Source: Bacteroidaceae bacterium (lineage in GTDB: Bacteria; Bacteroidota; Bacteroidia; Bacteroidales; Bacteroidaceae). Taken from it: a stretch of 64,000 nucleotides of DNA. The position numbers and the translations under genes were made by a program. The DNA lies in contig JAFWYF010000004.1 in the NCBI GenBank assembly GCA_017522785.1, positions 55,480 to 119,479 of the forward strand. The letters run 5' to 3'. Shown here piece after piece: positions 13,313-27,929 of this stretch (its first letter is position 1; the number at the start of each line of letters is the position of its first letter). A model generated the notes under the pieces. The model saw nothing but the letters and a program-made list of their open reading frames with translations. It made no database searches and had not been told where the DNA came from.

Positions 13313-14839
13313 TCAATATACGCAAAGGTTAGACAATAACGGACAAGCTCTGCTATCGAGTATCTTAATACGAAGCTTCATTGCGTTGTAGCCCTCGCCA
13401 TAACTCTCCGAAGTGCTTCCGTTCAACGGAATAATTCTCTTATAACCAACAGTTGTGGTTTGCATTACAGGACATAGTTCATGCCATGTATTTCCATCGG
13501 CGCTGAACTCCAATGTAAAATCTTTAATGCGCTGTCCCAAAGAGATAGGCTCTTGCATTACCAAATAACGTATTGTTTGAGGAGTATCCCAAGAGAGAGT
13601 GATTGTTGCCGACAAACTACCGTCGTTAGTACCCCAATATGTCTCTTTATCGCCATCGGTGAGATTCTTCACATCATATTTGCCACCGGTGCGCACCTCG
13701 CTTACCTCTATATTTGCACTCTTTGCATAATCAACTGCAGCAGTTGTTTCGTCCATGCCGTCTACAGGCAATGCCAAACGCTTGTGCAACATTTCGCCCA
13801 ACTTCTTTAACTCATTAACGGTGTTGGTTGGCAAAACACCATATTGGTCGGGGGGACAGTTGAGAATGAGTGTGGCATTACGTCCAACTGTCTCCAAATA
13901 CATTTGGAAAAGACGCTCTGCGCTCTTCATCGATTCACCTTGATGCCAGAACCAACCGGCATTTGTAGCTTTGGCATCGCTCTCGCCCGGGTTCCAGAAC
14001 CAACCGTTTATATCACCCTCTTCACGAACACCACTGCCACCGTAATCGGTCATAGCCCAGTTTGTCTCTCCGGCATAGCCCGACTCATTACCTATCCAAC
14101 GAGCCTCGCCACCAACACCCCAAAGAACACAGTTGGGAGCAATTTGGTGCACACGAGCACGAAGGTTGGGAGTATCGTAATAGATTTCAGCATCTACCTG
14201 ACGTGTTCCACCTTCACCACCATAATAACCATTTCCACCATTGGCTCCGTCGAACCACATCTCGAATTGGTCATCGCCATATTTTGCCAACTCCTCGCAC
14301 TGTTTTAGGAACACCTCTGTAACATAGGTATCTTTGCCATAGTGTGCCGAGTTACAGTCCCACGGCGAGATGTAAAAACCATATTTCATATTATGCTTTT
14401 TGCTTGCTGCGGCATACAGTTCGGGAATATTAGCTGTACGACCATACTCATTTCCAGCTTTTGCTATGCTGTGTGTTGTTGTTTCAGTAGGCCACAAGCA
14501 GAAACCGTCATGATGCTTTACAACAGCGATACCTCCGGTCATGCCGGCAGCCTTAACAGAGGTTATCCACTGTTCGGGATTAGGCATGGCTTTAGGAGCA
14601 TAAATAGATTCATCCTCATCACCATGTCCCCACTCATTGCCGGTAAATGTGTTCATACCATAGTGGAAAAAGGCATAGAATTCTGTTTCATTCCATAAAA
14701 TTTGTCGCTTGTGTGGTACCGGATGACAAGGTGCAGGCACATTATCAGGATTGGATAACTCCTGAGATACCATCTGAAACTCTTGGGCAAACCCTGCAAA
14801 AGGTATTAACAACCCAATTAGAAGTGTCTTAATCTTCAT
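13313..14839 (-). CDS. alpha-L-fucosidase (GH29) with C-terminal F5/8 type C (discoidin)-like domain
   Basis: Signal peptide ends FA-QEF. Contains the VVKHHDGFCLWPT block typical of GH29. The C-terminal NLTDGDKETYWGT segment is a discoidin-like pattern. Confidence 0.85.
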   Translation of the reverse strand: MKIKTLLIGLLIPFAGFAQEFQMVSQELSNPDNVPAPCHPVPHKRQILWNETEFYAFFHYGMNTFTGNEWGHGDEDESIYAPKAMPNPEQWITSVKAAGMTGGIAVVKHHDGFCLWPTETTTHSIAKAGNEYGRTANIPELYAAASKKHNMKYGFYISPWDCNSAHYGKDTYVTEVFLKQCEELAKYGDDQFEMWFDGANGGNGYYGGEGGTRQVDAEIYYDTPNLRARVHQIAPNCVLWGVGGEARWIGNESGYAGETNWAMTDYGGSGVREEGDINGWFWNPGESDAKATNAGWFWHQGESMKSAERLFQMYLETVGRNATLILNCPPDQYGVLPTNTVNELKKLGEMLHKRLALPVDGMDETTAAVDYAKSANIEVSEVRTGGKYDVKNLTDGDKETYWGTNDGSLSATITLSWDTPQTIRYLVMQEPISLGQRIKDFTLEFSADGNTWHELCPVMQTTTVGYKRIIPLNGSTSESYGEGYNAMKLRIKILDSRACPLLSNLCVY

Positions 14840-16025: not shown

Positions 16026-16386
16026 TATTGAATTATTTTAGTTAGACATTATTTATATATAAAGCAATGTAATACTGTTTAAACAAACGAGAAGATTAAT
16101 TGGTAATGGGATTGTCGTTGTTTTATTGATTATTAATATTGTCAATGAGTTTTAATTACTTTTCTCCTTTAAAACCTCGGAATTCAAAGAGTAGTTATTA
16201 CTTTAACCAATTGCTCTTTTGTTTTTCCTTTTTTTAAAAAAGGCTGTTAAAAGCAAAAGGTATAGAGAAAAAACAGTTCGTGAGGCACCTAGAATTATAA
16301 GCTAAGAACTGCAAAAAACATCTCCACTCCCACATTAACACTACCCAAGCAGGGAAAATAGAAGAACAGAAACACTCTATTGAGAT

Positions 16387-16433
16387 TAACACATAAATGG
16401 GGTTGCTAATTTAGCAACCCCATTTATGTGTTA
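16387..16433 (-). terminator. long stem-loop closing the nine-gene operon
   Basis: ttaacacataaatggggttgcta at tagcaaccccatttatgtgttaa forms a stem of about 23 bp, 27 nt past the stop at 16460. No U tract, so it could be a terminator or an RNA-stability/processing element. Confidence 0.5.
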
Positions 16434-16459
16434 GAGAAAATTGAAAGAATAGAGATTTA

Positions 16460-17923
16460 TTATTTCCCTAAATATCTCTTTTGTAATTTAGTAGCCTCGC
16501 CCTTTGCTCTCTCAATAATAGGCTTCCACTGATAGTTGCGATATAATCCAACTACAGTACTATAAGTCATAATGATAAATGATACACAGCAAAGCACTAG
16601 AACTGCTATAATAATCAATGCCAACATCCTTGCAAAGATAAGGAAGTTTCCTGCGTCCACCTCTTTATCTTTACGAACTTGTCCATTGCTAAGATAGGTA
16701 GTAACCTCGATATCAGGCAACAATTTAGTTGCAAGAACAGTACCTAATAAAGAGGCAGCAATACCAAATGCTAAATCACGAATAGAGTTAATGAATTTAG
16801 AATCTTCCTCATATTTCACTATAACATAGCCATACTGATAGGATGCAAGAATGTAGAGAGGAGTCATTACTATAGCAAGGAAGAGCAAAAAGTTCACCCA
16901 TACGGTGCCTCCTTTTAGATGTGATACCATATCTTCACACTCCTCTATAGCAGCATCTTGAACATCGTCGAAGTCCATCTCGTTGAAATCTTCATACTTT
17001 TCGAGATACTCTTCGGCCATATCCTCATACTTCTCTTGCGAATCGAGATATTCATCTCTTTTGTCTGAATCGGCCGCTTTTGCAGCAGATTCTGCATAGT
17101 TTTCGGCACTCTCTTTAGCTTCGTAATGTTCACGATATAACATATGCAACATATATATTTTATAGTTGTTGGCATTGTCATATACGTTCGTAAAGAAGCC
17201 ACCATGTGGCGAAGGATACTCGGTCAGAATAGTATCACACTCTTGCCAATCTTCTACCAATGCAAGTCGTTGTTCAGCCTTATCAATAGCACCTTTATTT
17301 TTCATACTATAATAAAATAGTATGATGATTGATAAAAATACACCACCTATTATCATCCACGAGTGTGTCCACTGACGTGTAAGCGACCAACTGACACTGT
17401 TGCGCAACATGTTGATTCGTTCTACTAGAGTAGACTCGTGAGGGGCATCAGCTGCCTTTTCTGCCTTATCCAAAAGTTCATCGACACGCATAGCCTCTTC
17501 GGGCGATTTAATATTAAAGGCAACTCTTTCATCTTTCAATTCGCGCATTGCCAAGCTATAGGCCTCATTTGCATAAGCCCATGCCTCGTTATTAACATTT
17601 TCGCCTTCTGGTTCTTCGGGATAATCCAATGGACGGGCATAGCCTTCTTCGACACTTTTCCAAAGGCGCCACACCATTTTACATTCCAATCCATTGCTAC
17701 GTAGTTTTCGTGCCAATGTAAATGCCTTGAGCCATTTACCGGCCTCAAACACATAAGGCAGATTTCCTTGCAGGTCGCCTATTTGTGTCAGACTGAGACC
17801 AACATCATACTTTAGTATTTCAATTAATTTCTCTTTCGAAACACCGTCGATGTTTGTAAGTTTTATGTAGTACTTTTTGTATCCAAGAAAGTATACCAAC
17901 AGGAATATTAAGAGTTCAAACAT
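16460..17923 (-). CDS. polytopic membrane protein with N-terminal L7/L12-CTD-like module and a very acidic loop (operon gene 9)
   Basis: 487 aa with hydrophobic segments at about 1-15, 187-205, 350-372, 395-413 and 440-470. Residues 19-84 resemble the ribosomal L7/L12 C-terminal domain. The segment DSDKRDEYLDSQEKYEDMAEEYLEKYEDFNEMDFDD is strongly acidic. Confidence 0.8.
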   Translation of the reverse strand: MFELLIFLLVYFLGYKKYYIKLTNIDGVSKEKLIEILKYDVGLSLTQIGDLQGNLPYVFEAGKWLKAFTLARKLRSNGLECKMVWRLWKSVEEGYARPLDYPEEPEGENVNNEAWAYANEAYSLAMRELKDERVAFNIKSPEEAMRVDELLDKAEKAADAPHESTLVERINMLRNSVSWSLTRQWTHSWMIIGGVFLSIIILFYYSMKNKGAIDKAEQRLALVEDWQECDTILTEYPSPHGGFFTNVYDNANNYKIYMLHMLYREHYEAKESAENYAESAAKAADSDKRDEYLDSQEKYEDMAEEYLEKYEDFNEMDFDDVQDAAIEECEDMVSHLKGGTVWVNFLLFLAIVMTPLYILASYQYGYVIVKYEEDSKFINSIRDLAFGIAASLLGTVLATKLLPDIEVTTYLSNGQVRKDKEVDAGNFLIFARMLALIIIAVLVLCCVSFIIMTYSTVVGLYRNYQWKPIIERAKGEATKLQKRYLGK

Positions 17924-17959
17924 AGTTATATCTGTTTAAAGATGAATATTGTGTGTGTT

Positions 17960-18760
17960 TTATGCACCTTCAGCCTCCATGAGAGCATCGAGATCCTCGG
18001 GCTCTGCATCGAGTGTCTCTCCCTCAACCTCGGGAGCAACAGCAATATTCAAACCACCCATGAGCGCCTCTTGTGCAGCAACTTCTTCGGGAGTAAGTTC
18101 GCGACCTACACTCTTATCGAGTTTAGTGATGAAACAACATTTAGAGAGAGATTTCAACTGTTCCTCGTTCCATATTCCAAGTGTAGCAGGGTCAATTGCA
18201 CCCTCTTTCATTGCCTTCCACTGCTGATACTGCTGACGACGCACTGCTGTAATTTGTTTAATCTCGGCACCACAAAGTTCAATTACTTTAGGACCCGATT
18301 TTAGATATTTACCATAGGAGAGAGCCTGTAAACCCATGTCGGGCAATGCAGTTGTAGCCGAAGCTGTGAGAACACCGATATTTGCAATATCGAGTACAAT
18401 GTTAGTACCCTGCATGATAGCATTAACCAACTGCCATGTTACTGCACCACGAGTAAGGTAAGCACCCGAAGCATCTTCCATGTGAGCCATCACATAGTCG
18501 GCACCATTCACATCACGCAATGTGTCGGTTTTAAATGTATAGGTGTTCATGCTCTCTGCAACCTTTTGAACATCGTTCCAAACGGTATCACATGTGAGCA
18601 GGTAGAGGTCGAAGTCGGCATTACCGCTAAGTTCGGGCATAACCCACTCATATTTTTTCTTCTCTTTCTTTTTCTTCTCTTTTTTAGAGGCCTCAGCATT
18701 CATTGGAGCCAACATAAGAATTGCAAGCATTGCAACCATTACTTTTGAAAGTGTTTTCAT
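17960..18760 (-). CDS. exported hypothetical protein, Lys-rich N-terminus and acidic C-terminus (operon gene 8)
   Basis: 266 aa. Signal peptide ends NA-EAS. This is followed by KKEKKKKEKKK, and the C-terminal tail is EVEGETLDAEPEDLDALMEAEGA. Confidence 0.75.
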   Translation of the reverse strand: MKTLSKVMVAMLAILMLAPMNAEASKKEKKKKEKKKYEWVMPELSGNADFDLYLLTCDTVWNDVQKVAESMNTYTFKTDTLRDVNGADYVMAHMEDASGAYLTRGAVTWQLVNAIMQGTNIVLDIANIGVLTASATTALPDMGLQALSYGKYLKSGPKVIELCGAEIKQITAVRRQQYQQWKAMKEGAIDPATLGIWNEEQLKSLSKCCFITKLDKSVGRELTPEEVAAQEALMGGLNIAVAPEVEGETLDAEPEDLDALMEAEGA

Positions 18761-18804
18761 AATTCTAAATTTTAAGATTAGTATTATATTTGTCTGTTTG
18801 TTTT

Positions 18805-20199
18805 TTATGGAGTAAGCACAACATCGAGTGTTTGTGTTTTATGCTCTACCGGATGCGAACATCCTTCTCCTTGGAAATAGAGATATTTAAAATCTTCGCG
18901 CATTTTTATCGAATATTTACCACCCTGAACTGTACCCACCTTCTTTAGGTTATACTTTTTTACATCCTTTATTTTGCTTATATAAATATTGGAAGCATAG
19001 ATATCCACATCTACAGGGAATATCCATCCTTCGCCTGCAGTAACTGTTCCGCTTATTACAGGATACTCCACTATCGAAGAAGGATGCTGGCCATATTTGT
19101 AATCTATCTCACGCAATAACTTCTTGTAGTACTCCATTTCGGGAAACTCATCTATCAATGTATGCAAGCGCTTACGCTCGAAATTTAGATATTTCCACAC
19201 GTTAGCCGATTCAAAACCCTCTTCGTCTGCCAGCTTGCGCCAACGCTCGTCGGCCTGATTGATAGCATTTGTGTGGTTACGTATCTTCTTGAACTTATTA
19301 GCTTGTATCTGATGAGCATCTTTTTTGTCTATAGGACATTGCAAATGTTTGCTAGCCTTTTCGTATGCATCGGCCACTGACGCAAAGTATGCACTTGTGT
19401 GCTCCTTTTCGTAGCCAGCCTCTTTATTCTGTGCAACAGCAAGCACATCTTCGTATGTCTCGTCGGTAGCCCTTACCACCATGAAGATGTAGGATGTACG
19501 ACCAACTAGTTCTTTTTGTTCAATTTGAACACTGCTAAAGTCGGGCGAACTGATTTTGAATGCTACATTACCTGTTATGTCTTTACTGCTTTTTGTCTTG
19601 GGAGCAAGATTAAAGACAATAGCATAATCTTTTTGCTCACCCACCATTTCGGCCGAAGCTTTAAAGTTACAGCCGGTTAATGTAACAGGTTTACCATTTT
19701 CTATGCATGTAATGCCATTACAAGCAATTGTAAGATTTGTAAAAGCCGACATAAATGTAACCTTTGCAGCGTTTGCGTATGGGTAGACAGCATCGGCCTC
19801 GCGATTTATTGCAACATTAATTTTCTCGTCGTATGAGCCCTCATAAACCTTTCCTTTATACATTACGAGTGGTACAGTCTCTTGCCCCATAGGCAAACGT
19901 AACTGTAGCTGTGTCTTTAGAAAGTCATCGTCATAATCCTCGGGGAATGTATAGTTTATAGTATACTTATAGCGTCCGTTACTTTCGATGCTCTTTGTAC
20001 CTTTTTCTATACCCACACTATGCGACATTATCAGATTGTCGCAATTAGATGTTACAATGATGATAGCCTCGTCAACCCCTGCTGTTTGAGTTTTACTCTC
20101 TGTTGGAGGCACAAGCGTCGTGTTGTCGTCTTGTGCCGTTGTCTTCACTACACCAAGAAACGACAAAAGCGATATAAAGATTATCTTTTTCAATTTCAT
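18805..20199 (-). CDS. exported hypothetical protein (operon gene 7)
   Basis: 464 aa. Signal peptide ends TA-QDD. The C-terminal roughly 90 aa (VISGTVTAGEGWIFPVDVDIY...) resemble a CarboxypepD_reg-like beta-sandwich (tentative). Confidence 0.75.
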   Translation of the reverse strand: MKLKKIIFISLLSFLGVVKTTAQDDNTTLVPPTESKTQTAGVDEAIIIVTSNCDNLIMSHSVGIEKGTKSIESNGRYKYTINYTFPEDYDDDFLKTQLQLRLPMGQETVPLVMYKGKVYEGSYDEKINVAINREADAVYPYANAAKVTFMSAFTNLTIACNGITCIENGKPVTLTGCNFKASAEMVGEQKDYAIVFNLAPKTKSSKDITGNVAFKISSPDFSSVQIEQKELVGRTSYIFMVVRATDETYEDVLAVAQNKEAGYEKEHTSAYFASVADAYEKASKHLQCPIDKKDAHQIQANKFKKIRNHTNAINQADERWRKLADEEGFESANVWKYLNFERKRLHTLIDEFPEMEYYKKLLREIDYKYGQHPSSIVEYPVISGTVTAGEGWIFPVDVDIYASNIYISKIKDVKKYNLKKVGTVQGGKYSIKMREDFKYLYFQGEGCSHPVEHKTQTLDVVLTP

Positions 20200-20210
20200 A
20201 GTTCTTTACA

Positions 20211-21209
20211 TTATAGGTCGATAACGAAATCTCCGGGTGTAAAAATTTCCTCTTTTGCTATTGGCTGAGTCTTGTTCTCGTCCATCCAATAGGGTTGCCA
20301 TGTACGAACATGAATCTGCACATTGTCTTTGTCGCGGAAATCCCACAAAAGGAACAAATAGCCATCGTCGCTGTAGCCACGGCTGTTTGAATATTTTTGA
20401 CGAACAGTTACACCATAGAAACCCTCCATTAGAGGATTAGGGTGTTTAACAACCTTCACATCCTCGAACTGCACATTTATCCAACTGTTGCTGGCAAAAC
20501 TTCTTTTGAGGTTTGTGATATACTCCTGTTTATTTTGTTTCTTGTATGTTACCTTGTTGTATGAGATACCCATTCCATCGGTCTTTTTAACCTTTGTTAC
20601 TGTACCTGTGATGATAAGCGCATCCTCGCTGAAGATATTCTCTAGGAAAACAATATCCTTTTCGTTATACGCTGTACGGAACTGCTCCACGTATGACAAT
20701 ATCTGCTGACGACGGCTGACCTCGGTTACATTTTTTCCCTTTTTCATCACATTCTGATAGACATTTGTGCTAAGTGTGAAATTGAAACGGGTTATTTTAC
20801 CTGTTGCATCGAAATTTATAACTGCCTCTTGATACTCATCGTCGAGTGTTTCACCATTAGGTTTTATCATCAACGGAATTTGACGTACCTGATAAGTGCT
20901 TCCCACAGACAAGCAAGATTGCACGACCTCGCTGTCATCGCAATAGAAATGAGCATTCTCCCAAAGAGCAGAAAGACCACTTACAGCACTCTCGGCAAGG
21001 CCAAGATTAACCAAGTTCAATGCACGATTTTCGTTATATGCGGCATTTATTTCTGTTAGCAAGCGACTGGCCGATTTCTCCATTTTTACTTTAAGGGCAA
21101 TATCGTACAAGCCATCAACAATCTCTAGTTTAACCCCCTCTTGTGCATTAATGGTAACAATCGACAAACAGCAGACTGCAACCATTAGCCAACGTAATAA
21201 ATTTCTCAT
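20211..21209 (-). CDS. exported hypothetical protein, possible NTF2/SnoaL-like C-terminal half (operon gene 6)
   Basis: 332 aa. Signal peptide ends NA-QEG. QQILSYVEQFRTAYNEKDIVFLENIFSEDALIITG resembles the start of an NTF2-like fold (tentative). Confidence 0.75.
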   Translation of the reverse strand: MRNLLRWLMVAVCCLSIVTINAQEGVKLEIVDGLYDIALKVKMEKSASRLLTEINAAYNENRALNLVNLGLAESAVSGLSALWENAHFYCDDSEVVQSCLSVGSTYQVRQIPLMIKPNGETLDDEYQEAVINFDATGKITRFNFTLSTNVYQNVMKKGKNVTEVSRRQQILSYVEQFRTAYNEKDIVFLENIFSEDALIITGTVTKVKKTDGMGISYNKVTYKKQNKQEYITNLKRSFASNSWINVQFEDVKVVKHPNPLMEGFYGVTVRQKYSNSRGYSDDGYLFLLWDFRDKDNVQIHVRTWQPYWMDENKTQPIAKEEIFTPGDFVIDL

Positions 21210-21228
21210 AATATTATCTTTTTATTTT

Positions 21229-22023
21229 TTATTTTAACATAAACCAATAAGCTCCACAACCACTGAAATCAACTATATTCTTTGCACTATTATCCTTTGC
21301 ATCGGTGTATTTGTCGCCACTCTTGCGCACAATAGCTTTTATGTTACCCTCGCGTGTGTAGAACAATAGATAGCACTCATTTACAACTGTTTGAGCATTA
21401 TAACTGCCATAGTTTATTTTGCTCTCGCTTTTTAGTGAAGCAAATACAGGTTTTAAGTCGCTCATTGTTTTTGCAGCCAATATCTGCTCCAATGGAGTTA
21501 CCTCTGCAACAGACTCTTTTACAACAGGCGCTGCTTCATTTTCGACCTTTACAGAATCTGCCACTTGTGTCTCTGCAACATTTTTTGTACTATCGGACTG
21601 TGCCGGAGCGTTAATCTCGGAGAGAGCCTGCAAATCGGCTCCATTCTCTTCGTTGTTGAGAACAATTTGTCCGTCGCCATATATTAATACAATATCTTTT
21701 TTCTTCACATAGACAAAAGCACGTGTTTTTATACCACGTTTCATGTCCATCTCCTGAGCGCAAAGGTTAATATCCTGCAAAACAATCTGCTTTACCTCGG
21801 CACCGTTTCTTTTTGAAGCCACCCAATCGTTAATCTCGCCAACGAGTAACTCGCGTGCCAGACTCAAAGCCTCTTCCTCGGTGGACATGGTAGCCTCAGC
21901 CGATAGATACTGTGATGAACGTTTAATTTTGTTTATCTGCGCCTTTGTATCTGAGTTGTTCTGTGCATTAAGTATGCCACATAAGCAAATACTTAAAATA
22001 AATAGTGTGAAAAACTTTTTCAT
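21229..22023 (-). CDS. exported hypothetical protein (operon gene 5)
   Basis: 264 aa. Signal peptide ends NA-QNN. A low-complexity acidic/Val linker joins two globular halves. Confidence 0.75.
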   Translation of the reverse strand: MKKFFTLFILSICLCGILNAQNNSDTKAQINKIKRSSQYLSAEATMSTEEEALSLARELLVGEINDWVASKRNGAEVKQIVLQDINLCAQEMDMKRGIKTRAFVYVKKKDIVLIYGDGQIVLNNEENGADLQALSEINAPAQSDSTKNVAETQVADSVKVENEAAPVVKESVAEVTPLEQILAAKTMSDLKPVFASLKSESKINYGSYNAQTVVNECYLLFYTREGNIKAIVRKSGDKYTDAKDNSAKNIVDFSGCGAYWFMLK

Positions 22024-22059
22024 GGTTATATGTTTTTATCTCATTACCGTATTCTACAA

Positions 22060-23046
22060 TTACTTGTCGTCGGATGCCTCGTTGAATTCGTCGAAAAGTG
22101 CCGAAATATTATGTGTAGGAACAAACAGGTTAAGGTCGCCTGTTACAGTGCCCTTTCTATCTTTAAAAACAGTGTATGGAACTTCGACATTCATCACATG
22201 ATTGTATTTAAATATGTTGTTTACAGCAAAGAATGCCACTTGAATTGAGTTGGTACCCATCTCCTCTATACCAATATATATATTACAACCTAGTACTTTA
22301 AGATAGGAGAGCCATAATTTCAAAGGTAAAGTACGCTGTTCCTTTTTTAATCCATATTTGCGCACCACCAACTCCAATGACACCTCACCGGGGGAAAGTT
22401 CCGAGAGCAAAAGATTATGACAACTCTCCAGCGGATGGTCGGCATCGAAAACCAACTGTAAGCCAGCACCACTGTTTATTAGATAGAGGTTACTGTTTAT
22501 ATCGTCTATCTGATAGGCACCACCCGGTTTCATATAATAGTTGTCGTGTAGCGGCTTCAGTTCCGATATTTCGGTAGTCAAAGTATCGACTATTCGGTAG
22601 GAGTAGTTATCCAACCCAACAAACAGGTTGTCTTCGAGCTGTTTCAGGTTCTGCCCTGTCATTAATTGACACGATGCCGGGAAAGATATCTCAATAATAG
22701 GGTTCTTGGCATTGAAGACAGCCAAACTATACCTGTTGTTCTCCTCGGCAAATGCCAACGAACTGCTATCATCTATTCGTGCCAGATTTTCAATGCGCCC
22801 TTTTGTTATGCGCACATCATCGCGCTCCATACGCGACGACTGTTCTGTAGCATTCATACCTTGCAACTCAGCCAGATAGCGTTCGACAAAATCGAACACA
22901 ACGGATATTGCCGGAATATCTTTAGATGCCTTTTGCGCCTCATCGCGTAACCTACCGCCCAAAACTCCATTATGCTGCCCCCACACAGATAGTGGGAGTA
23001 GCATAATGAAAATAGAGCAATATACTATTTTAAATAGCTTGTTCAC
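22060..23046 (-). CDS. exported hypothetical protein (operon gene 4)
   Basis: 328 aa. Signal peptide ends WG-QHN. No family recognised. Confidence 0.75.
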   Translation of the reverse strand: MNKLFKIVYCSIFIMLLPLSVWGQHNGVLGGRLRDEAQKASKDIPAISVVFDFVERYLAELQGMNATEQSSRMERDDVRITKGRIENLARIDDSSSLAFAEENNRYSLAVFNAKNPIIEISFPASCQLMTGQNLKQLEDNLFVGLDNYSYRIVDTLTTEISELKPLHDNYYMKPGGAYQIDDINSNLYLINSGAGLQLVFDADHPLESCHNLLLSELSPGEVSLELVVRKYGLKKEQRTLPLKLWLSYLKVLGCNIYIGIEEMGTNSIQVAFFAVNNIFKYNHVMNVEVPYTVFKDRKGTVTGDLNLFVPTHNISALFDEFNEASDDK

Positions 23047-23052
23047 AGGGTC

Positions 23053-23688
23053 TTAAGGAATGATTGTCTCTTTATTACCATCTTTTTTGTGCCATGTACC
23101 GGTTACAAGATGTCCATCTTCAAATATTCCGATAACCTTTTCACCCGGTTGTGCTGTACGCTTTTTAATATCGCGTTGTTCAATGATATGTGTCTCTTTG
23201 AATGTGAGTACGCCATTGTCGTCGTTCATCTTGCCATTTTTCATGCGACCTTTGTACACTGCATAACCCAAATCTTTGGTAACAACCAAATTTGGGTCGG
23301 GTGCAGGAGCCGGTGTAGGCTCTGGTTCCGGGGCAGGTGCTGGTGCAGGAGCTGGGATAGGCTCGGGGGCAGGAACAGGCTCAGGGGCAGGTGCTGGTGC
23401 AGGTTGAACTTTCTTTGGCTCTTTTGCCTTTTTATCCGATTCTGGCATAAAGAACATTGCCGCACCGCCGGCTGCAATTGCAAGAACAGCAATAATTGCT
23501 ATTATTAATCCTTTATTACCACCTTTCTTGGGAGGAGGACACTCACGCAATGCCTTTCCACACTCGGCACAAACAAATTCCTTGCGTGATGGAATCTCTT
23601 GTACCTCTTTTGCTTTTGCCTTTGAACAACCATCGTTCAAACACATTCCATATCTAAAACGAACTCTGTCGTTACTACTACTTGCCAT
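23053..23688 (-). CDS. bitopic membrane protein: zinc ribbon, TM helix, (Pro-X)19 spacer, small C-terminal globular domain (operon gene 3)
   Basis: 211 aa. Cysteines C16-x4-C21 ... C40-x2-C43; TM at about 61-81 (LIIAIIAVLAIAAGGAAMFFM). Residues 96-132 alternate Pro strictly at every second position. The C-terminal YKGRMKNGKMNDDNGVLTF ... GIFEDGHLVTGTW is MORN-like. Confidence 0.8.
   Translation of the reverse strand: MASSSNDRVRFRYGMCLNDGCSKAKAKEVQEIPSRKEFVCAECGKALRECPPPKKGGNKGLIIAIIAVLAIAAGGAAMFFMPESDKKAKEPKKVQPAPAPAPEPVPAPEPIPAPAPAPAPEPEPTPAPAPDPNLVVTKDLGYAVYKGRMKNGKMNDDNGVLTFKETHIIEQRDIKKRTAQPGEKVIGIFEDGHLVTGTWHKKDGNKETIIP
23293..23403 (-). repeat. imperfect tandem GC-rich repeat encoding the (Pro-X)19 spacer
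   Basis: Reiterated ggtgcagg/ggtgctgg/ggctcggg units are visible on the plus strand. They translate as PAPAPAPEPVPAPEPIPAPAPAPAPEPEPTPAPAPDP. Confidence 0.8.
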
Positions 23689-23724
23689 TTTTTATTATTT
23701 TTAAATTGTTATCTATTTATGTTA

Positions 23725-26700
23725 TTACATCATTGGAGGGGGAGGAGGTGTAGGACCACCTGCAGGAGGCAACGGTGGGAAACCGGGTGCTGCAGCAGGA
23801 GGTGCAAACAATGGTTGCAATGCAGGAACCTGTCCGGCAGGCATCCATGCGGGCATACCGTCCATCCAAACTGTGCTTTGTGCTGTCAATTGACCACCCT
23901 GTACCATTTGTTTACACTGCTCATAGGTATAAGGACCATAGTTCTGACCTGCTACAGAGAGGTAGAGACTAATCTTTGGCTCTTCAGCATGAGGTGGAGG
24001 GGGAGGAGGTGTGCTTAAGCCACCGGGAGGTGGAGGAGGCACAGCCATTCCCATTGTAGGTTGCTGAACTTGCGCAGCGGGTTGCATAGTAGCTTGTGCG
24101 GCCTTTGCAGCAACCTCTTCGGCATTTTCTACAGCAAACAATGATGGTAATTGACTACCGTCGCCCTCACTATGTAACAAAATAGAATTGCTTAAGTCTG
24201 TAGCGGGATTTCCTGTGCATAGGAACTTTTCGTAACGTTCTTTATAAGGAGTCATCCACTCGATACCACGTACAGGGAAGCAGTATGATACTGTGATAAT
24301 TGAAAGCTCGTCTTTACGTGGGCTCTTGCGATTTACAGTGATTGTGGTACGTGCTGTACTCTGATTGAACGAATTTTTAAATGCTGCCTCAAGTTTATCT
24401 GCAAATTTCTTCAGGCCCTCATTTTCATCGGGAGAAGGAATAGAAACGAGTATAGCCTTTTTGTTAATACTTGCAGGGTTTGTAGGACTTAGATTTCCTT
24501 CGTTATTACGCAAGTGCAACTGTATCTGGTCGTTGTTCAAACGAAGATATACACCACTTTGACCTACTATCTTAGAAGCAAAGGCTTTGATATCATCATC
24601 GGTCTTAAGCTTTTGTTGTAACTGTGTTAGGATATTCAGGCCCAATACCTTATTGTCGCTATCGGCCTTTTCATTGTGTTTGGTCTTTACAATTTCTGAC
24701 AACTTAACATCAAATGCATCTTTTATATCATCGATGCTGATATTGTTTGCCAAATTACCAAAGTTCAAGAAATCGCCAACAGGTAGTATAGATTCACGCA
24801 ATTGACGTGCAATATTAGGCATATCTACTTTGTCAATCTTAAGTTCTTTCTCAAACTCATCCATTGCCTCCTCTTCGCTAACCTCAATGATTGCACCCTT
24901 CATATCCTCGAGACCTTTGTTCACCTTCTTCTGTGCTGTTACCAAACGCTCGGTTTCATCGATAGCATCATTGATTTTTTGACCAAATGAAGAGATATCG
25001 GCATCCATTTTACCTATTTCAACAAATACTTTTGCTAGAAGTTTCTTTGCAAAATCCCAACCACAAAGCATTGTCTTCGATGTATAGTAATCGGTTAAAA
25101 TACCCTGATGATCGGCATAGCGACGTGCACCAACACCAACCATGCGTTGCAATATACCCAAACGGCTCCACTCCTCGACATTTACTTTGCGGTCCTCTTC
25201 GCAAGCCTCGTAATTGGTTTTTTCCTCTTTTTCTTTTACTTCGAGCTCTTCGCGCATCTCGCCCAAACGCTCAAGCAGAAGTTTTGAAACTTTCTGCAAC
25301 TCAACAATAGAAACATCACCCAATTTCCATTTCTCGAACAGTTCGACCTCAATTGTGTGGCGTATCTCACGTGCTATTTCGGGAATTACACGTTCTTTAC
25401 CTTGGAAGAATGCTTCTACACCCTCTTCTCTGAAATGCTTGTTATAGAACTCGCTCATTATAGTATCGAGTTCATTGAGCGGACAATCGGCCTTCTTTGC
25501 ATCTTCGGCATAGCCAATTGCTTTATCGTGCCAATAATCGTTAAAGCCGGGATAATCAGCATCTGATTCAAGCACTTTAGCCTCCATTGTCAAATGTAGG
25601 TCGTCGAGCATCCATTTTGCGAGATTTTCTTTGTTGAAATACTCTTTGCGATAGTCTTTGTTGCGTTCTTCATCAACATAGCCAAGATTCTCTCGCCAAT
25701 TATTATATTTAAATTGATAGAGTATACTCTCGCCCACTGTATATGTGATATGTTTGAGTACACGAAGCTCAGGATACATCACACGTTTAATTCCGAAAGA
25801 ATTGATTTTCTTGGTACGGGCAACAGGGATACGTCCGTCTGCACCGGCATTTGCAGCCTCATCATACTCCAATGCAAAATCATCCATATTCTCGAAATTG
25901 TATGCACGTATGATATCGCTATTAACCTGATCCTCTTCGTTTATAAAGAATATACGGGCAAATACATAGTCGCTGACAATTTTAGGAAGTTCTGTGAGAG
26001 AATTTATTGTTAAACCATTCTCATTCACATTACTATAAACAGTGAGACCATCTGCAACACCCTTTACGCGGTCGCTATAATATTTAGCTTGTCCACCACC
26101 TGTTACATCGCAAGGGAACCATCGACCAGCCTGCAAAGCATTCAACTCGTTCATTGCAGCGTAACCATTCTGGTAGTAACGACCTTGGTCCATATCGGCT
26201 TTGGGAAGATTCATTTCGGGAATCATTGCATAAACCGAAATTTTTGCATTTGGGAATGTTTTACGTGTTTGTACAACAACGTCGACAATTGAACCCGAAC
26301 CTGTACCACCACAAAGACCGGCAAAGATATGTATATTGGTACTTGTAGCATCGGCAGAAATAGCCTCACAACGTGCATAGGCATCACGAAGGCTATTTAC
26401 ATAACCTACAGCATTTGCAGCAAACAAAAGACGACCAGCACGACGTTTTTGTCCTGCGGCTTGACCCAACGAGCCAATAGCCGACCTTACTGCCGATACA
26501 TTATCTACTATTCCCTTTACAGAAGGATAGTTGTTTATGTGGTCGAGAATATGCTCAACATCAACAGCTTTGATATTTAAAAATTCGTTATTGGTAAACG
26601 AAGCATCCTGTCCCATTACACGAAAGTCGGGACGTGCTCTACCATCTTTTGGCATCATTTCGTCGGTTGAATCGACATACAAAAGAGCAACTGGCAATTG

Positions 26701-26823
26701 CTTGCGCTCGTCAGCTGTTGGGAACTCCTCGAACATACGCATCTTGAATGCACGCAAGATTTTACCACCTGTACCTCCTAGACCAACGAGGATGTGGTTG
26801 CTTTTACAAAAATTAGTCTCCAT
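23725..26823 (-). CDS. tubulin/FtsZ-superfamily GTPase-like protein with long helical region and C-terminal GYF-like domain (operon gene 2)
   Basis: 1032 aa. VGLGGTGGK (T1-like, nt 26761-26784); GSLGQAAGQKRRAGR (FtsZ T3-like GAGxxPxxG, nt 26431-26475); GGTGSG (tubulin signature, nt 26293-26310, checked against the nucleotides). The middle region is rich in charged heptads. The C-terminus has a W/GP/W GYF_2-like pattern between polyproline runs. Confidence 0.85.
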   Translation of the reverse strand: METNFCKSNHILVGLGGTGGKILRAFKMRMFEEFPTADERKQLPVALLYVDSTDEMMPKDGRARPDFRVMGQDASFTNNEFLNIKAVDVEHILDHINNYPSVKGIVDNVSAVRSAIGSLGQAAGQKRRAGRLLFAANAVGYVNSLRDAYARCEAISADATSTNIHIFAGLCGGTGSGSIVDVVVQTRKTFPNAKISVYAMIPEMNLPKADMDQGRYYQNGYAAMNELNALQAGRWFPCDVTGGGQAKYYSDRVKGVADGLTVYSNVNENGLTINSLTELPKIVSDYVFARIFFINEEDQVNSDIIRAYNFENMDDFALEYDEAANAGADGRIPVARTKKINSFGIKRVMYPELRVLKHITYTVGESILYQFKYNNWRENLGYVDEERNKDYRKEYFNKENLAKWMLDDLHLTMEAKVLESDADYPGFNDYWHDKAIGYAEDAKKADCPLNELDTIMSEFYNKHFREEGVEAFFQGKERVIPEIAREIRHTIEVELFEKWKLGDVSIVELQKVSKLLLERLGEMREELEVKEKEEKTNYEACEEDRKVNVEEWSRLGILQRMVGVGARRYADHQGILTDYYTSKTMLCGWDFAKKLLAKVFVEIGKMDADISSFGQKINDAIDETERLVTAQKKVNKGLEDMKGAIIEVSEEEAMDEFEKELKIDKVDMPNIARQLRESILPVGDFLNFGNLANNISIDDIKDAFDVKLSEIVKTKHNEKADSDNKVLGLNILTQLQQKLKTDDDIKAFASKIVGQSGVYLRLNNDQIQLHLRNNEGNLSPTNPASINKKAILVSIPSPDENEGLKKFADKLEAAFKNSFNQSTARTTITVNRKSPRKDELSIITVSYCFPVRGIEWMTPYKERYEKFLCTGNPATDLSNSILLHSEGDGSQLPSLFAVENAEEVAAKAAQATMQPAAQVQQPTMGMAVPPPPPGGLSTPPPPPPHAEEPKISLYLSVAGQNYGPYTYEQCKQMVQGGQLTAQSTVWMDGMPAWMPAGQVPALQPLFAPPAAAPGFPPLPPAGGPTPPPPPMM
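23734..23751 (-). repeat. 18-nt direct repeat copy A (encodes TPPPPP at the extreme C-terminus)
   Basis: tggagggggaggaggtgt is identical to the copy at 23995-24012. The copies are 261 nt (87 codons) apart and in the same frame. Confidence 0.9.
23995..24012 (-). repeat. 18-nt direct repeat copy B (encodes TPPPPP just before the GYF-like domain)
   Basis: tggagggggaggaggtgt is identical to the copy at 23734-23751. Confidence 0.9.
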
Positions 26824-26845
26824 AATACATTATTGTTAAATTAGT

Positions 26846-27472
26846 TTATCTTGTTCTTCTATGTGAATGGCCACTTACACGAGGACGCGAACGGTCGCCA
26901 CCCACAGGTTGGCGTCGGCCGGCACCTTCGCGGGTTCTACCACCAGAGCCATTGTTTATTGATATTGTTTTAATTGCTATGATTGCCGAAACCACTACAA
27001 AGCCTAAGCACCAGAGCAAACGACGAAATATGAAATGGCGCATAAAACTGCGTATTTCGTCTCCTATTGCCGCTGGGAGTGTTTCGACAGTGTATCCCAT
27101 AAAATAGCCTGAACCAAAATAGTTTTCGAATATTGGAAATTCATCTATGAGCAACTGAATTACCTCTTCGCTTTCGGCAATTGAAACAGAGGAATCCAAT
27201 GACACATAGCGCATATCAAGAATTTCCTGAGTTTTTTCCTCTACAATATCGGTAAAACTGATTATTTTTATTGCTCCACAAATCATTATACACTGTACGG
27301 AAAGCAAAACGAAGAGTACAAAGCCCATGATGTAGGTTATGATTGTAAACTCTGCATTCTTCCACCATCCTTTAATGGCAAAGAAAAACAGACACATACA
27401 TACAGCGGCAATAAGTATTCCCCAAAAGAGGCTGCTTATTGAAAATTGAAGTATTTCCCAAAGTGCATTCAT
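26846..27472 (-). CDS. 3-TM membrane protein with Arg/Gly-rich C-terminal tail (operon gene 1)
   Basis: 208 aa with hydrophobic segments at about 14-33, 42-68 and 150-170. The tail is GSGGRTREGAGRRQPVGGDRSRPRVSGHSHRRTR. Confidence 0.75.
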   Translation of the reverse strand: MNALWEILQFSISSLFWGILIAAVCMCLFFFAIKGWWKNAEFTIITYIMGFVLFVLLSVQCIMICGAIKIISFTDIVEEKTQEILDMRYVSLDSSVSIAESEEVIQLLIDEFPIFENYFGSGYFMGYTVETLPAAIGDEIRSFMRHFIFRRLLWCLGFVVVSAIIAIKTISINNGSGGRTREGAGRRQPVGGDRSRPRVSGHSHRRTR

Positions 27473-27580
27473 AGTCCTAAACTTATAGTAGAAGAATTAA
27501 GATATAAGTGATGATAAAAGCCTGCACTACTAAACTATTGTAAAAGCAAGTAATACAAGCACTTATCAACAAAATAGCAG

Positions 27581-27600
27581 TCAAATCTCTTAACAAGAGA
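27581..27600. promoter_or_regulatory. hairpin motif copy 1 in the operon leader/promoter region
   Basis: tcaaatctctt-aac-aagaga. The arms tctctt/aagaga are self-complementary. It shares 11+6 nt with copy 2, with the loop inverted. Confidence 0.4.
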
Positions 27601-27614
27601 CAAACCGAATAATG

Positions 27615-27622
27615 CAAATGTA
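27615..27622 (-). promoter_or_regulatory. candidate Bacteroidetes -7 promoter element (TACATTTG) for the nine-gene operon
   Basis: This is the only exact TAnnTTTG match on the minus strand between 27473 and 27780. It would place hairpin copy 1 at the start of a leader of about 135 nt. Confidence 0.3.
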
Positions 27623-27754
27623 TACAAAATATTGAAATAATCTCTAATTTATTAAAAAAAATCTTACATACCGCAAAAATTTCTATTAAATGTTTAGCAA
27701 ATGGCTCTATATGGTATGGCATTTGTAGTTGATTATCAGCCCATTTAGATTTTG

Positions 27755-27778
27755 TTCAAATCTCTTGTTAAGAGATTT
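27755..27778. promoter_or_regulatory. hairpin motif copy 2 (perfect 9-bp arms)
   Basis: ttcaaatctctt-gtt-aagagattt, with arms aaatctctt / aagagattt. Confidence 0.4.
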
Positions 27779-27905
27779 CGGTACTTACGAAACTTTCCTA
27801 TTCTTTGCGTATTTTTCATTATTTCACTTATAAATAATAGGAAGTTTTTTTACAGCTAAACGCAATAAATTCCCTTTTACTATTATGAATTACCTGTTTT
27901 GTTGC

Positions 27906-27913
27906 TATATTTG
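27906..27913 (+). promoter_or_regulatory. candidate -7 promoter element TATATTTG upstream of tcdA
   Basis: Exact TAnnTTTG match ending 16 nt before ATG 27930. Confidence 0.45.
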
Positions 27914-27929
27914 CTAACAAAAAACAGGT

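Follow-up and report, generated by a model that had tools for sequence, protein, structure and literature searches.

The FtsZ-like 1 (FtsZl1) proteins, which have been stated to equal the Pfam family Tubulin_2 (PMC9871819), lie on one of the most divergent branches of the tubulin superfamily and have been a purely computational prediction since 2010. Their defining features are a divergent FtsZ-like domain at the N terminus, which carries a GGGTG(S/T)G loop, then an extended coiled coil and a globular domain at the C terminus; their operons recurrently contain vWA proteins, a diverged P-loop GTPase, OmpA, a Ser/Thr kinase and the families B1-B9, which come from Actinobacteria, Clostridia and Cyanobacteria (PMC2875224). 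Two readings of FtsZl1 compete, membrane remodelling and conflict systems; the tubulin theme of the GAP1-N2 conflict systems has been stated to be restricted to Firmicutes and Actinobacteria (PMC7159879). Here we analyse a window of 64 kb (the whole stretch of DNA under study, from contig JAFWYF010000004.1), in which nine co-directional minus-strand open reading frames (ORFs), named g1 to g9 in transcription order, occupy positions 16460-27472. The original prediction, made from the sequence alone, saw in them a nine-gene operon built around a giant tubulin-like protein, g2, with no characterised counterpart. We found that g2 is a member of the FtsZl1/Tubulin_2 family and that eight of the nine genes appear to form a conserved unit in Bacteroidales.

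The protein encoded by g2 and its recognisable regions are the following (aa, amino acids; pLDDT, predicted local distance difference test):
26823-23725, minus strand: g2, FtsZl1/Tubulin_2 family protein, 1032 aa (Pfam profile, AlphaFold2, Foldseek).
26799-25708, minus strand: tubulin-like core of g2, aa 9-372 (conservation, Foldseek).
25308-24934, minus strand: long antiparallel coiled-coil hairpin of g2, helices aa 506-553 and 564-630 (DSSP on the model, pLDDT mostly >90).
23967-23806, minus strand: C-terminal GYF_2 domain of g2, aa 953-1006 (Pfam GYF_2).

The g2 product matched Tubulin_2 (PF13809) with 155.6 bits (cut-off 27; E 2.6e-45) along aa 11-367, which corresponds to profile positions 1-354 of 356. 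The canonical Tubulin profile (PF00091) remained below threshold (20.8 bits vs a cut-off of 33), and the Pfam scan of g2 reported neither an FtsZ_C nor a Tubulin_C domain. An exhaustive search retrieved 1112 cluster representatives at E <=1e-3, 291 of them at E<1e-30; most g2 relatives have a length of ~1000 aa and can be aligned collinearly from aa 8 to aa 897. The g2 product itself is 100% identical to a protein from an NCBI metagenome-assembled genome (MAG) annotated as 'DUF4339 domain-containing protein [Bacteroidaceae bacterium]'. Among 122 full-length representatives, the T1-like loop GLGGTGG (aa 14-20) was at least 85% conserved. The tubulin signature GGTGSG (aa 172-177) lies within GLCGGTGSG (aa 169-177), of which residues G169, G172, G173, T174, G175, S176 and G177 were invariant or at least 85% conserved, the first G of the GGGTG(S/T)G motif being replaced by C in g2 and by A in the family consensus. 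Conservation of at least 85% extended in the same representatives to an Arg-rich QKRRAGR stretch, an H7-like YxxNxYAAxxELNA helix and a subsequent PxD.

An AlphaFold2 model of g2, built on a 30-sequence alignment (pLDDT 86, predicted TM-score (pTM) 0.74), comprises from the N to the C terminus the alpha/beta core (aa 9-372), helical segments, the coiled-coil hairpin, which corresponds to the extended coiled coil that defines FtsZl1 (PMC2875224), and a helical and alpha/beta C-terminal body (aa 651-883). In total, ~650 residues lie beyond the tubulin-like core. The top matches of this model in a Foldseek search against PDB belonged to the tubulin superfamily only: CetZ (3zid; E 7e-6, TM-score 0.51), BtubB and beta- and gamma-tubulin (TM-scores of ~0.4), all over 350-380 aligned columns (~375 of ~425 for the tubulins). 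Since this many columns align with full-length tubulins and CetZ, both tubulin domains are modelled, also the stretch that had resisted sequence alignment in 2010. Near the C terminus, Pfam GYF_2 covered aa 954-1002 (E 5e-14), bordered by disordered poly-Pro tracts at aa 913-945 and 1010-1032, and the domain matched the GYF domain of a Myxococcus gliding protein (PDB 7z3c, E 1e-3). It is present in 77 of 77 close g2 orthologues vs 2 of 121 family representatives, and by this distribution appears to be a clade-specific feature.

Profile, AlphaFold model and Foldseek search thus bear out the tubulin/FtsZ-superfamily membership proposed for the 1032-aa protein. Whether the locus belonged to one of the FtsZ-like families predicted in 2010 had been left as a test, and g2 is indeed an FtsZl1 protein. 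Because this family is known and named, the claim that there is no characterised counterpart needs qualifying: it holds in that no member has been characterised experimentally, but not as regards the family itself. Like the FtsZl1 proteins of PMC2875224, g2 combines ~1000 aa, a GGTG(S/T)G loop, a coiled coil and a globular C-terminal region, and its gene is likewise surrounded by genes for membrane-associated and lineage-specific uncharacterised proteins, with an OmpA-type partner in a relative whose g2 is 29% identical. In contrast, the recurrent partners of the FtsZl1 operons are absent here, Pfam and NCBIfam scans of g1 and g3-g9 having matched none of them; since the 2010 partner set describes a typical context and not the protein family, this does not exclude the membership of g2. 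The only true Bacteroides FtsZl1 in that study, BACCAC_02057 (913 aa), has a different three-gene context with a cysteine protease, and neither the GYF fusion nor the Zn-ribbon/MORN partner, the NTF2-like exported set or the invertible promoter (inverton) reported below was described there (PMC2875224). With CetZ, FtsZ, BtubA/B, TubZ/PhuZ and the tubulins, g2 shares the two-domain fold and the T1 and T4 loops. Unlike these canonical members, it resembles FtsZ in sequence at the T4 loop only and lacks FtsZ_C and Tubulin_C, and the partner sets of the divisome, TubRC, BtubC and the phage spindle have nothing in common with g1 and g3-g8.

We scanned one genome per GTDB species (185,579 species representatives), of which at least 496 encode a g2 relative. 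The best 80 loci of these genomes, together with the three contigs of this organism, made a set of 83 loci, some of them incomplete. In those best 80, g2 identity was 61-91%, and they came from Prevotella, Xylanibacter, Paraprevotella, Alloprevotella, Paludibacteraceae and Muribaculaceae; cultured carriers are Xylanibacter brevis ATCC 19188, X. muris, Prevotella sp. P2-180 and Prevotella sp. MGM1. Iterative profile searches with the nine products against all ORFs of the 83 loci recovered g1 in 77, g2 in 83, g3 in 78, g4 in 74, g5 in 72, g6 in 78, g7 in 44 and g8 in 45. The homologues of g1-g8 kept a constant order on a single strand, with g7 always after g6 and g8 always after g7. The full g1-g8 set, also in order, was found with hidden Markov models of the partners in metagenomic loci with g2 46% and 39% identical. 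At 29% g2 identity, the sole recognisable partner was the Zn-ribbon protein (g3), immediately downstream, and the neighbours were a CarboxypepD_reg-OmpA protein, which ties the clade to the OmpA contexts of PMC2875224, and an immunoglobulin-like (Ig) protein with a type IX secretion system (T9SS) tail.

The expected nine-gene synteny was therefore found in part: g1-g8 are collinear in Bacteroidales, but g9 stands outside the conserved unit. Based on these comparisons, we predict that the functional unit is g1-g8, with a near-universal core (g1-g6) and a variable tail of exported proteins. Partner identity was 23-50% where g2 was 61-91% identical, and the genes flanking the operon vary between genera. 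The ninth gene is as follows:
17923-16460, minus strand: g9, polytopic membrane protein, 487 aa (only in the contigs of this organism among the 83 loci).

Relatives of g9 amount to 15 clusters in 5.8 billion proteins, and the two that we inspected were isolated genes in unrelated neighbourhoods without a Tubulin_2 gene nearby. Where g9 would be expected, the two closest species (g2 91% identical) have an unrelated 579-748-aa exported protein with PEGA domains. We therefore rejected the nine-gene unit, as g9 is not conserved with the block and its relatives stand alone elsewhere; it is probably co-transcribed with the operon in this organism and, judging from its distribution, is a putative lineage-specific passenger outside the conserved system. 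The L7/L12-CTD-like module once seen in g9 found no support in sequence searches (no Pfam match; BLASTP against E. coli L7/L12, E = 1.4).

Operon tails in other species encode exported proteins with PEGA, CarboxypepD_reg, Sel1/TPR, outer-membrane protein (OMP)-barrel, DUF4384 and, once, caspase domains. Examples after g6 or g8 are found in loci L055 (21022-22689; caspase, Peptidase_C14), L004 (18845-20581), L006 (16492-18940), L008 (17031-20687) and L019 (10761-13872), and many of these tail proteins share a Q-[DE]-[IL]-x-V-K-x-F strand just past the signal peptide. Two Prevotella MAG loci (L033 and L036) pass directly from g3 to g6, without g4 and g5, so that even the 'core' exported set is reducible. 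In two Paludibacteraceae loci (L059, 15556-17440, and L061) the g6 gene is tandemly duplicated (298 and 322 aa). In L084 (13161-15710) and L085 (10364-12919), where g2 is 46% identical, a second Tubulin_2 paralogue of 849-851 aa directly follows the g8 homologue, in the position of g9; Firmicute systems likewise have two tubulin genes (Kaur et al., PMC7159879). The gene upstream of g1 in X. brevis (L006, 7842-8738) encodes, judging by eye from its N-terminal sequence, a putative Abi-type (abortive infection) protein, which would bear on the defence reading discussed below.

Two of the partners are predicted inner-membrane proteins:
27472-26846, minus strand: g1, inner-membrane protein, 208 aa (hydropathy; 77/83 loci, immediately upstream of g2).
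23688-23053, minus strand: g3, bitopic protein, 211 aa (78/83 loci).
23652-23530, minus strand: cytoplasmic 4-Cys Zn-ribbon and ECPPPK of g3 (orthologue alignment).

A hydropathy script reproduced the topologies originally proposed for the locus, namely three transmembrane (TM) helices in g1, one in g3, signal peptides in g4-g8 and a polytopic g9, supporting an architecture that spans cytoplasm, inner membrane and periplasm. Orthologues of g1 keep two TM helices, a loop of ~85 aa and a third TM helix, followed by a cytoplasmic Arg/Ser-rich tail (10 Arg/Lys in 38 residues) whose composition is conserved but whose sequence is not. An ExbB/TolQ-like reading of g1 was rejected, as the order of TM helices and loop differs and there was no MotA_ExbB match. 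In g3, the Zn-ribbon cysteines C16, C21, C40 and C43 are invariant in orthologues, E49, C50, P52 and P53 are invariant or nearly so, the ECPPPK motif directly precedes the TM helix, and the C-terminal 70 aa are conserved and MORN-like. The (Pro-X)19 rod noted earlier is real but private to this species, the spacer varying in length and composition among orthologues; a conserved TonB-like spacer was rejected for this reason, an Ig domain standing in its place in L007.

The exact sequence ECPPP occurs in 63 of the 78 g3 orthologues; in all three relatives examined whose g2 lacks the GYF domain, other sequences, none with PPP, stand in its place. The co-variation points to the g2 GYF domain as a reader of the juxtamembrane PPP motif of g3; the poly-Pro flanks of the GYF domain itself, present in 71 of 77 orthologues, would be an alternative ligand. 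Binding of this kind has a precedent in Myxococcus, where the ligand of a bacterial GYF domain is a proline-rich sequence in a coiled-coil partner; a Zn-ribbon accompanies the GYF domain in ~44% of the bacterial proteins that have one (PMC11135422). Here the two modules are split, with GYF on g2 and the Zn-ribbon and PPP on g3. A similar arrangement is known from GltJ, part of the Agl-Glt focal-adhesion machinery of Myxococcus xanthus (Attia et al. 2024, PMC11135422), which likewise has a Zn-ribbon beside a TM helix, a GYF domain and a proline-rich ligand, in a system that also shares a coiled-coil cytoplasmic platform, a GTPase and, on the periplasmic side of the membrane protein, a disordered spacer that leads to a small globular domain. 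Unlike in GltJ, however, GYF and Zn-ribbon lie on separate proteins and the periplasmic domain is MORN-like, not TonB-C; unlike in Agl-Glt, the GTPase is tubulin-like, not Ras-like, and there is no motor. The NCBIfam matches of g3 to GltJ and TonB were weak and lay over the TM helix and Pro-rich part (GltJ, 25.6 vs a cut-off of 450), and Pfam found no TonB_C domain in the nine products. The resemblance to GltJ is thus one of working logic, not of system homology.

Five consecutive genes downstream of g3 encode exported proteins:
23046-22060, minus strand: g4, exported protein, 328 aa, GTG start (74/83 loci).
22023-21229, minus strand: g5, exported two-domain protein with variable linker, 264 aa (72/83 loci).
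21209-20211, minus strand: g6, exported, C-terminal NTF2-like domain, 332 aa (78/83 loci).
20199-18805, minus strand: g7, exported, frequent but non-universal, 464 aa (44/83 loci).
18760-17960, minus strand: g8, exported, frequent but non-universal, 266 aa (45/83 loci).

Their export by signal peptidase I-type signal peptides, as originally proposed, is supported by hydropathy and by cleavage contexts (A/G|Q or A|E) without a lipobox. Bacteroidetes signal peptidase I substrates favour Gln at +1, which these contexts fit. Neither a lipobox nor a T9SS C-terminal domain was detected in g4-g8 by Pfam or sequence inspection, so none of them is predicted at the surface. Public gene calls place the start of g4 at a downstream ATG (23004; 314 aa) and thereby cut off the positive n-region of its signal peptide; with translation from the GTG at 23046, the signal peptide is normal and g3 lies 6 nt away. 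No Pfam family matched g4 in any of 38 orthologues, and its AlphaFold2 model (pLDDT 87, pTM 0.81) had no significant PDB neighbour in Foldseek (best E 0.035), its sub-domains resembling NTF2-like curved sheets only weakly. The model thus points to a confidently predicted fold without a solved counterpart. No Pfam family matched any g5 orthologue either, and the family profiles of g4, g5 and g6 found nothing significant among PDB sequences. The best conserved partner is g6 (mean column identity 47%), whose C-terminal half matched Cds6_C in 21 and DUF4440 in 16 of 38 orthologues. Orthologues of g7, which was recognised in L084-L086, gave only sporadic CarboxypepD_reg (beta-sandwich) and TPR matches; g8 has a Lys-rich N terminus and a glycine-zipper-like hydrophobic segment, with Gly-zipper Pfam matches in few orthologues.

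The 457-nt intergenic region upstream of g1 extends, as described before, from 27473 to 27929, and contains inverted repeats that the original prediction had missed:
27761-27778, no strand: inverted repeat, distal arm, TCTCTTGTTAAGAGATTT (+ strand), 18 nt, 100% complementary to 27583-27600.
27601-27760, minus strand: putative 160-nt invertible promoter segment, between the repeat arms.
27583-27600, no strand: inverted repeat, proximal arm, AAATCTCTTAACAAGAGA, ends 110 nt before the g1 start codon.

Within the segment, 138 nt from its start, a -7 box (TACATTTG, 27622-27615) lies on the operon strand and points toward g1 (ON). It agrees with the Bacteroidetes -7 consensus TAnnTTTG. The repeat motif has no other copy in the 64-kb window (0.06 chance matches expected). 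Scanning the upstream regions of the 62 loci with enough sequence, we found a similar architecture upstream of g1 in seven other species (L021, L023, L026, L028, L030, L045 and L077), with perfect repeats of 13-25 nt and spacers of 159-169 nt, the maximum in shuffled controls being 12 nt. Across the inverton loci the repeat cores are related (TCTCTT-nnn-AAGAGA or TCTCTATGCAAGAG) and the -7 box keeps an offset of 137-147 nt within the segment. It faces g1 in the window and L023 but is turned the other way in L021, L045 and L077, and L026 and L028 have a TAnnTTCG variant facing away, which gives a tally between species of 2 ON, 3 OFF and 2 OFF with the variant box. In L021 and L026, the end of a gene for a tyrosine recombinase lies 32-76 nt from that repeat's distal arm. 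Repeats, promoter segment and adjacent recombinase together have what looks, from sequence comparison, like the standard anatomy of a Bacteroidales inverton: repeats of 13-25 nt, a promoter segment of ~160-170 nt, a -7 box near one end, both orientations observed and an adjoining recombinase in two species. The window differs from typical examples in that no cognate recombinase was found in its 64 kb; it may be encoded elsewhere in the genome. In this organism, expression of the operon is probably switched by the invertible promoter, and the core TCTCTT-nnn-AAGAGA, which we take to differ from the Mpi-type motif of Bacteroides fragilis capsule promoters, may mark a candidate inverton class. 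We found no report in the accessible literature of an inverton controlling a tubulin-superfamily operon.

Inversion of the segment would create the junction CTTAACAAGAGACAAACCGAATAATGC and bring CTTAACAAGAGA next to CAAACCGAATAATGC. Metagenome scans for this flipped junction and for an orientation-neutral internal stretch gave no matches in a collection from which the organism is absent. A 107-kb contig of this organism (L002, ERZ28653805 scaffold_256) stops ~40 nt outside the distal arm, possibly an assembly break caused by mixed promoter orientations, an observation too weak to count. The metagenomes behind this MAG are ENA ERZ28654085, ERZ28653805 and ERZ28018841.

As to the setting of the operon, the nearest named relatives of g2 are from Xylanibacter and Prevotella, and on this basis we assign the window to a Prevotella-group bacterium of gut or rumen. 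An ORF listing confirmed the nine genes and all of their intergenic gaps (22, 36, 6, 36, 19, 11, 44 and 36 nt). Downstream of g9, an AT-rich spacer (16026-16459, 434 nt, GC content ~0.34) reaches the ROK kinase gene and contains the hairpin seen earlier, with a perfect stem of 22 bp, not about 23 bp:
16387-16433, minus strand: terminator-like hairpin, perfect 22-bp stem, 3-nt loop.

The hairpin has a folding energy of -35.2 kcal/mol (z = -10.4; 0 of 200 shuffles as good) and no T-tract on its 3' side. The flanking housekeeping genes are the ROK kinase and a ThiF/tcdA-like gene. Elsewhere in the window are genes for glycan utilisation, namely an alpha-L-fucosidase with an F5/8 type C domain (13313-14839) and a GH92 fragment at the window start (68-556), as well as genes for RRF, RsgA, ribosomal protein L19, shikimate kinase and a NUDIX protein, surroundings that fit a resident chromosomal location. 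No tyrosine recombinase was detected in the 64 kb with a Bacteroidota integrase profile, and the small ORFs scanned were all housekeeping. Relatives of g2 were found on 2 of 72,556 plasmids, both non-mobilisable megaplasmids, and in none of 50,697 phage records. On these scans we rejected a mobile-island, plasmid or phage origin, and the resident chromosomal nature claimed for the block stands.

The reading that we prefer, and to which we give an even chance, is that the locus is a Bacteroidales-specific version of FtsZl1 that forms a phase-variable, GTP-dependent assembly beneath the inner membrane, coupled to a periplasmic scaffold. The g2 protein, which is cytoplasmic and has a tubulin fold of two domains, intact T1 and T4 GTP-binding loops, a coiled-coil hairpin and an alpha/beta C-terminal body, would bind GTP and self-assemble under the membrane. 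It would be tethered there by g3, whose Zn-ribbon and ECPPP face the cytoplasm, with co-variation speaking for this tether and the GYF domain likely reading either the PPP motif of g3 or the poly-Pro flanks of g2 itself; the Arg-rich tail of g1 may serve as a second anchor for g2. The 85-aa loop of g1 and the spacer and MORN-like domain of g3 are predicted to project into the periplasm, where they might organise a scaffold of g4, g5, g6 and usually g7 and g8. Other species would extend this scaffold with PEGA, Sel1/TPR, OMP-barrel, DUF4384 or caspase proteins, of kinds that usually touch the outer membrane or the peptidoglycan. The 160-nt invertible promoter, ON in this assembly, would make expression phase-variable, as the two orientations between species suggest. 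The least certain step is the output, which might be a local change in envelope organisation, with a nucleotide-dependent polymer in the cytoplasm directing it; as this organism's version has no catalytic domain, the output does not appear to be enzymatic.

Several observations weigh against this reading. The hhalign alignment of g2 with E. coli FtsZ was confined to the T4 loop and did not extend to the T7 catalytic loop, which makes polymerisation-activated GTP hydrolysis by g2 uncertain; a conserved P237-x-D239 comes after the H7-like helix. Makarova and Koonin (2010) reckoned with the possibility that FtsZl1 makes no filaments, or makes them in a novel way (PMC2875224), and we found no biochemical or genetic study of any FtsZl1 member in the accessible literature. 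The link between GYF and PPP has only three GYF-less counter-examples behind it. The faster divergence of the partners is compatible with low constraint on a scaffold, but also with diversifying or arms-race selection. All three contigs of this organism are ON, both orientations having been seen only between species, and only ~8 of the 62 loci carry an inverton, the closest relatives having none. As most loci do without it, phase variation would be a lineage add-on and not a defining feature of the system.

The main rival is that the locus is an anti-invader conflict system (defence or abortive infection), in which periplasmic proteins would sense a disturbance of the envelope caused by a phage or competitor and signal via g1 and g3 to a tubulin-like assembly acting as effector or threshold device. 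We consider this improbable, though well short of negligible. Published before but left aside by the original prediction, it is an analogy modelled on the GTPase-centric GAP1-N2 systems of Firmicutes and Actinobacteria, in which homologous tubulin and coiled-coil neighbourhoods have been read as conflict systems. Shared features are a tubulin domain continued by a coiled coil or a helical C-terminal region, a location close to the membrane, variable lineage-specific gene arrays, and Zn-ribbon, NTF2, PEGA, Sel1 and GYF accessory modules, which recur here or in relatives (PMC7159879). The much faster divergence of the partners than of g2, the variable tail with its caspase in L055, the cysteine protease beside the sole Bacteroides FtsZl1 of PMC2875224, the position of the operon that varies between genera and its control by an inverton would also suit such a system. 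Invertons are common at phase-variable defence loci in Bacteroidales.

However, the defining core of the GAP1-N2 systems (one or two DO-type GTPases, usually with Zn-ribbons at the N terminus, GAP1, an FNIII-repeat protein and vWA proteins) was not detected here. None of the nine products showed a Walker A motif or a vWA, kinase, nuclease or transporter domain in Pfam, NCBIfam and motif scans, which bears out the earlier view that the partners contain no enzyme, nuclease or transporter motif; the NCBIfam scan gave no match above noise, and the motif scan found three DxSxS strings, all isolated. A TRAFAC-clade (DO) GTPase was not found among the nine products, which had no Walker A and no GTPase Pfam match (g3 has a Zn-ribbon only), nor was an fn3 domain (no Pfam match); GAP1 has no profile in the libraries searched. 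Pfam likewise found no vWA match in the nine products and partner orthologues. The PADLOC-DB 2.0 defence models gave nothing above noise for the nine products, the two marginal matches having E 1e-3 (low-complexity part of g3) and E 5e-3 (g9). There is also no nuclease, pore-forming or protease effector in this organism's version. Finally, g2 is 61-91% identical across families in a strictly collinear operon that looks vertically inherited, unlike the turnover of defence islands, with housekeeping neighbours and a family nearly absent from plasmids and phages.

A role in cell shape or division, or in transport or gliding, seems less likely than either our preferred reading or a conflict system. 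An accessory cytoskeleton, CetZ-like or an FtsZ paralogue, with the exported proteins as adaptors for wall or outer-membrane remodelling, is unlikely in our view. The top structural match of g2 is CetZ, an archaeal cell-shape tubulin, its membrane anchors and periplasmic partners recall a divisome, and PEGA, Sel1 and OmpA-type modules that associate with peptidoglycan occur in relatives. Yet known divisome and elongasome families have no match among the partners, an invertible ON/OFF promoter would be an awkward control for essential morphogenesis, carriers are scattered (at least 496 of 185,579 species representatives), and Makarova and Koonin argued against a division role of FtsZl1, since conventional FtsZ co-occurs (PMC2875224).

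A trans-envelope transport or surface-structure machine like Myxococcus Agl-Glt or the TonB-dependent systems, with a GTPase/coiled-coil platform docked on a Zn-ribbon/GYF membrane protein, is very unlikely: it can draw on the match of the g2 GYF domain to the gliding-protein structure, the weak GltJ and TonB matches of g3, the documented logic of Zn-ribbon plus GYF, and the T9SS-tailed Ig and OmpA proteins in the operon of the relative at 29% g2 identity, but no proton-motive-force motor (ExbB/TolQ/MotA or AglRQS type) and no TonB_C were detected, the g3 matches are driven by low complexity and lie far under the family cut-offs, g4-g8 have no lipobox or T9SS C-terminal domain, and Prevotella-group bacteria are, to our knowledge, not known to glide.

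In the accessible literature we found no account of a g1-g8 architecture, of a GYF fusion whose Zn-ribbon partner is split off, of the exported components or of control by an inverton. The Bacteroidales version of FtsZl1 is suited to settle which of its two competing readings is right. It has a compact collinear core (g1-g6, usually with g7 and g8), it is free of the confounding GTPase and vWA modules, and it occurs in cultured carriers, some species having a natural ON/OFF switch that could be genetically locked. It also supplies a specific testable interaction, between the g2 GYF domain and the ECPPP beside the g3 Zn-ribbon, and at least one exported protein (g4) with a confidently predicted fold lacking a solved counterpart. 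It is mainly the cultured carriers and the specific interaction hypothesis that raise its interest above average, for a question open since 2010. In its most far-reaching form, which we propose only tentatively and hold to be doubtful, a tubulin-superfamily polymer would act across the Gram-negative envelope through a split Zn-ribbon/GYF-polyproline tether and drive or position a periplasmic scaffold of novel fold in a phase-variable manner. If true, this would be the first tractable trans-envelope polymer of the tubulin superfamily, and it would provide abundant Prevotella-group bacteria of the gut and rumen with a phase-variable change of their envelope, for example in vesiculation, surface-layer organisation or the masking of phage receptors.

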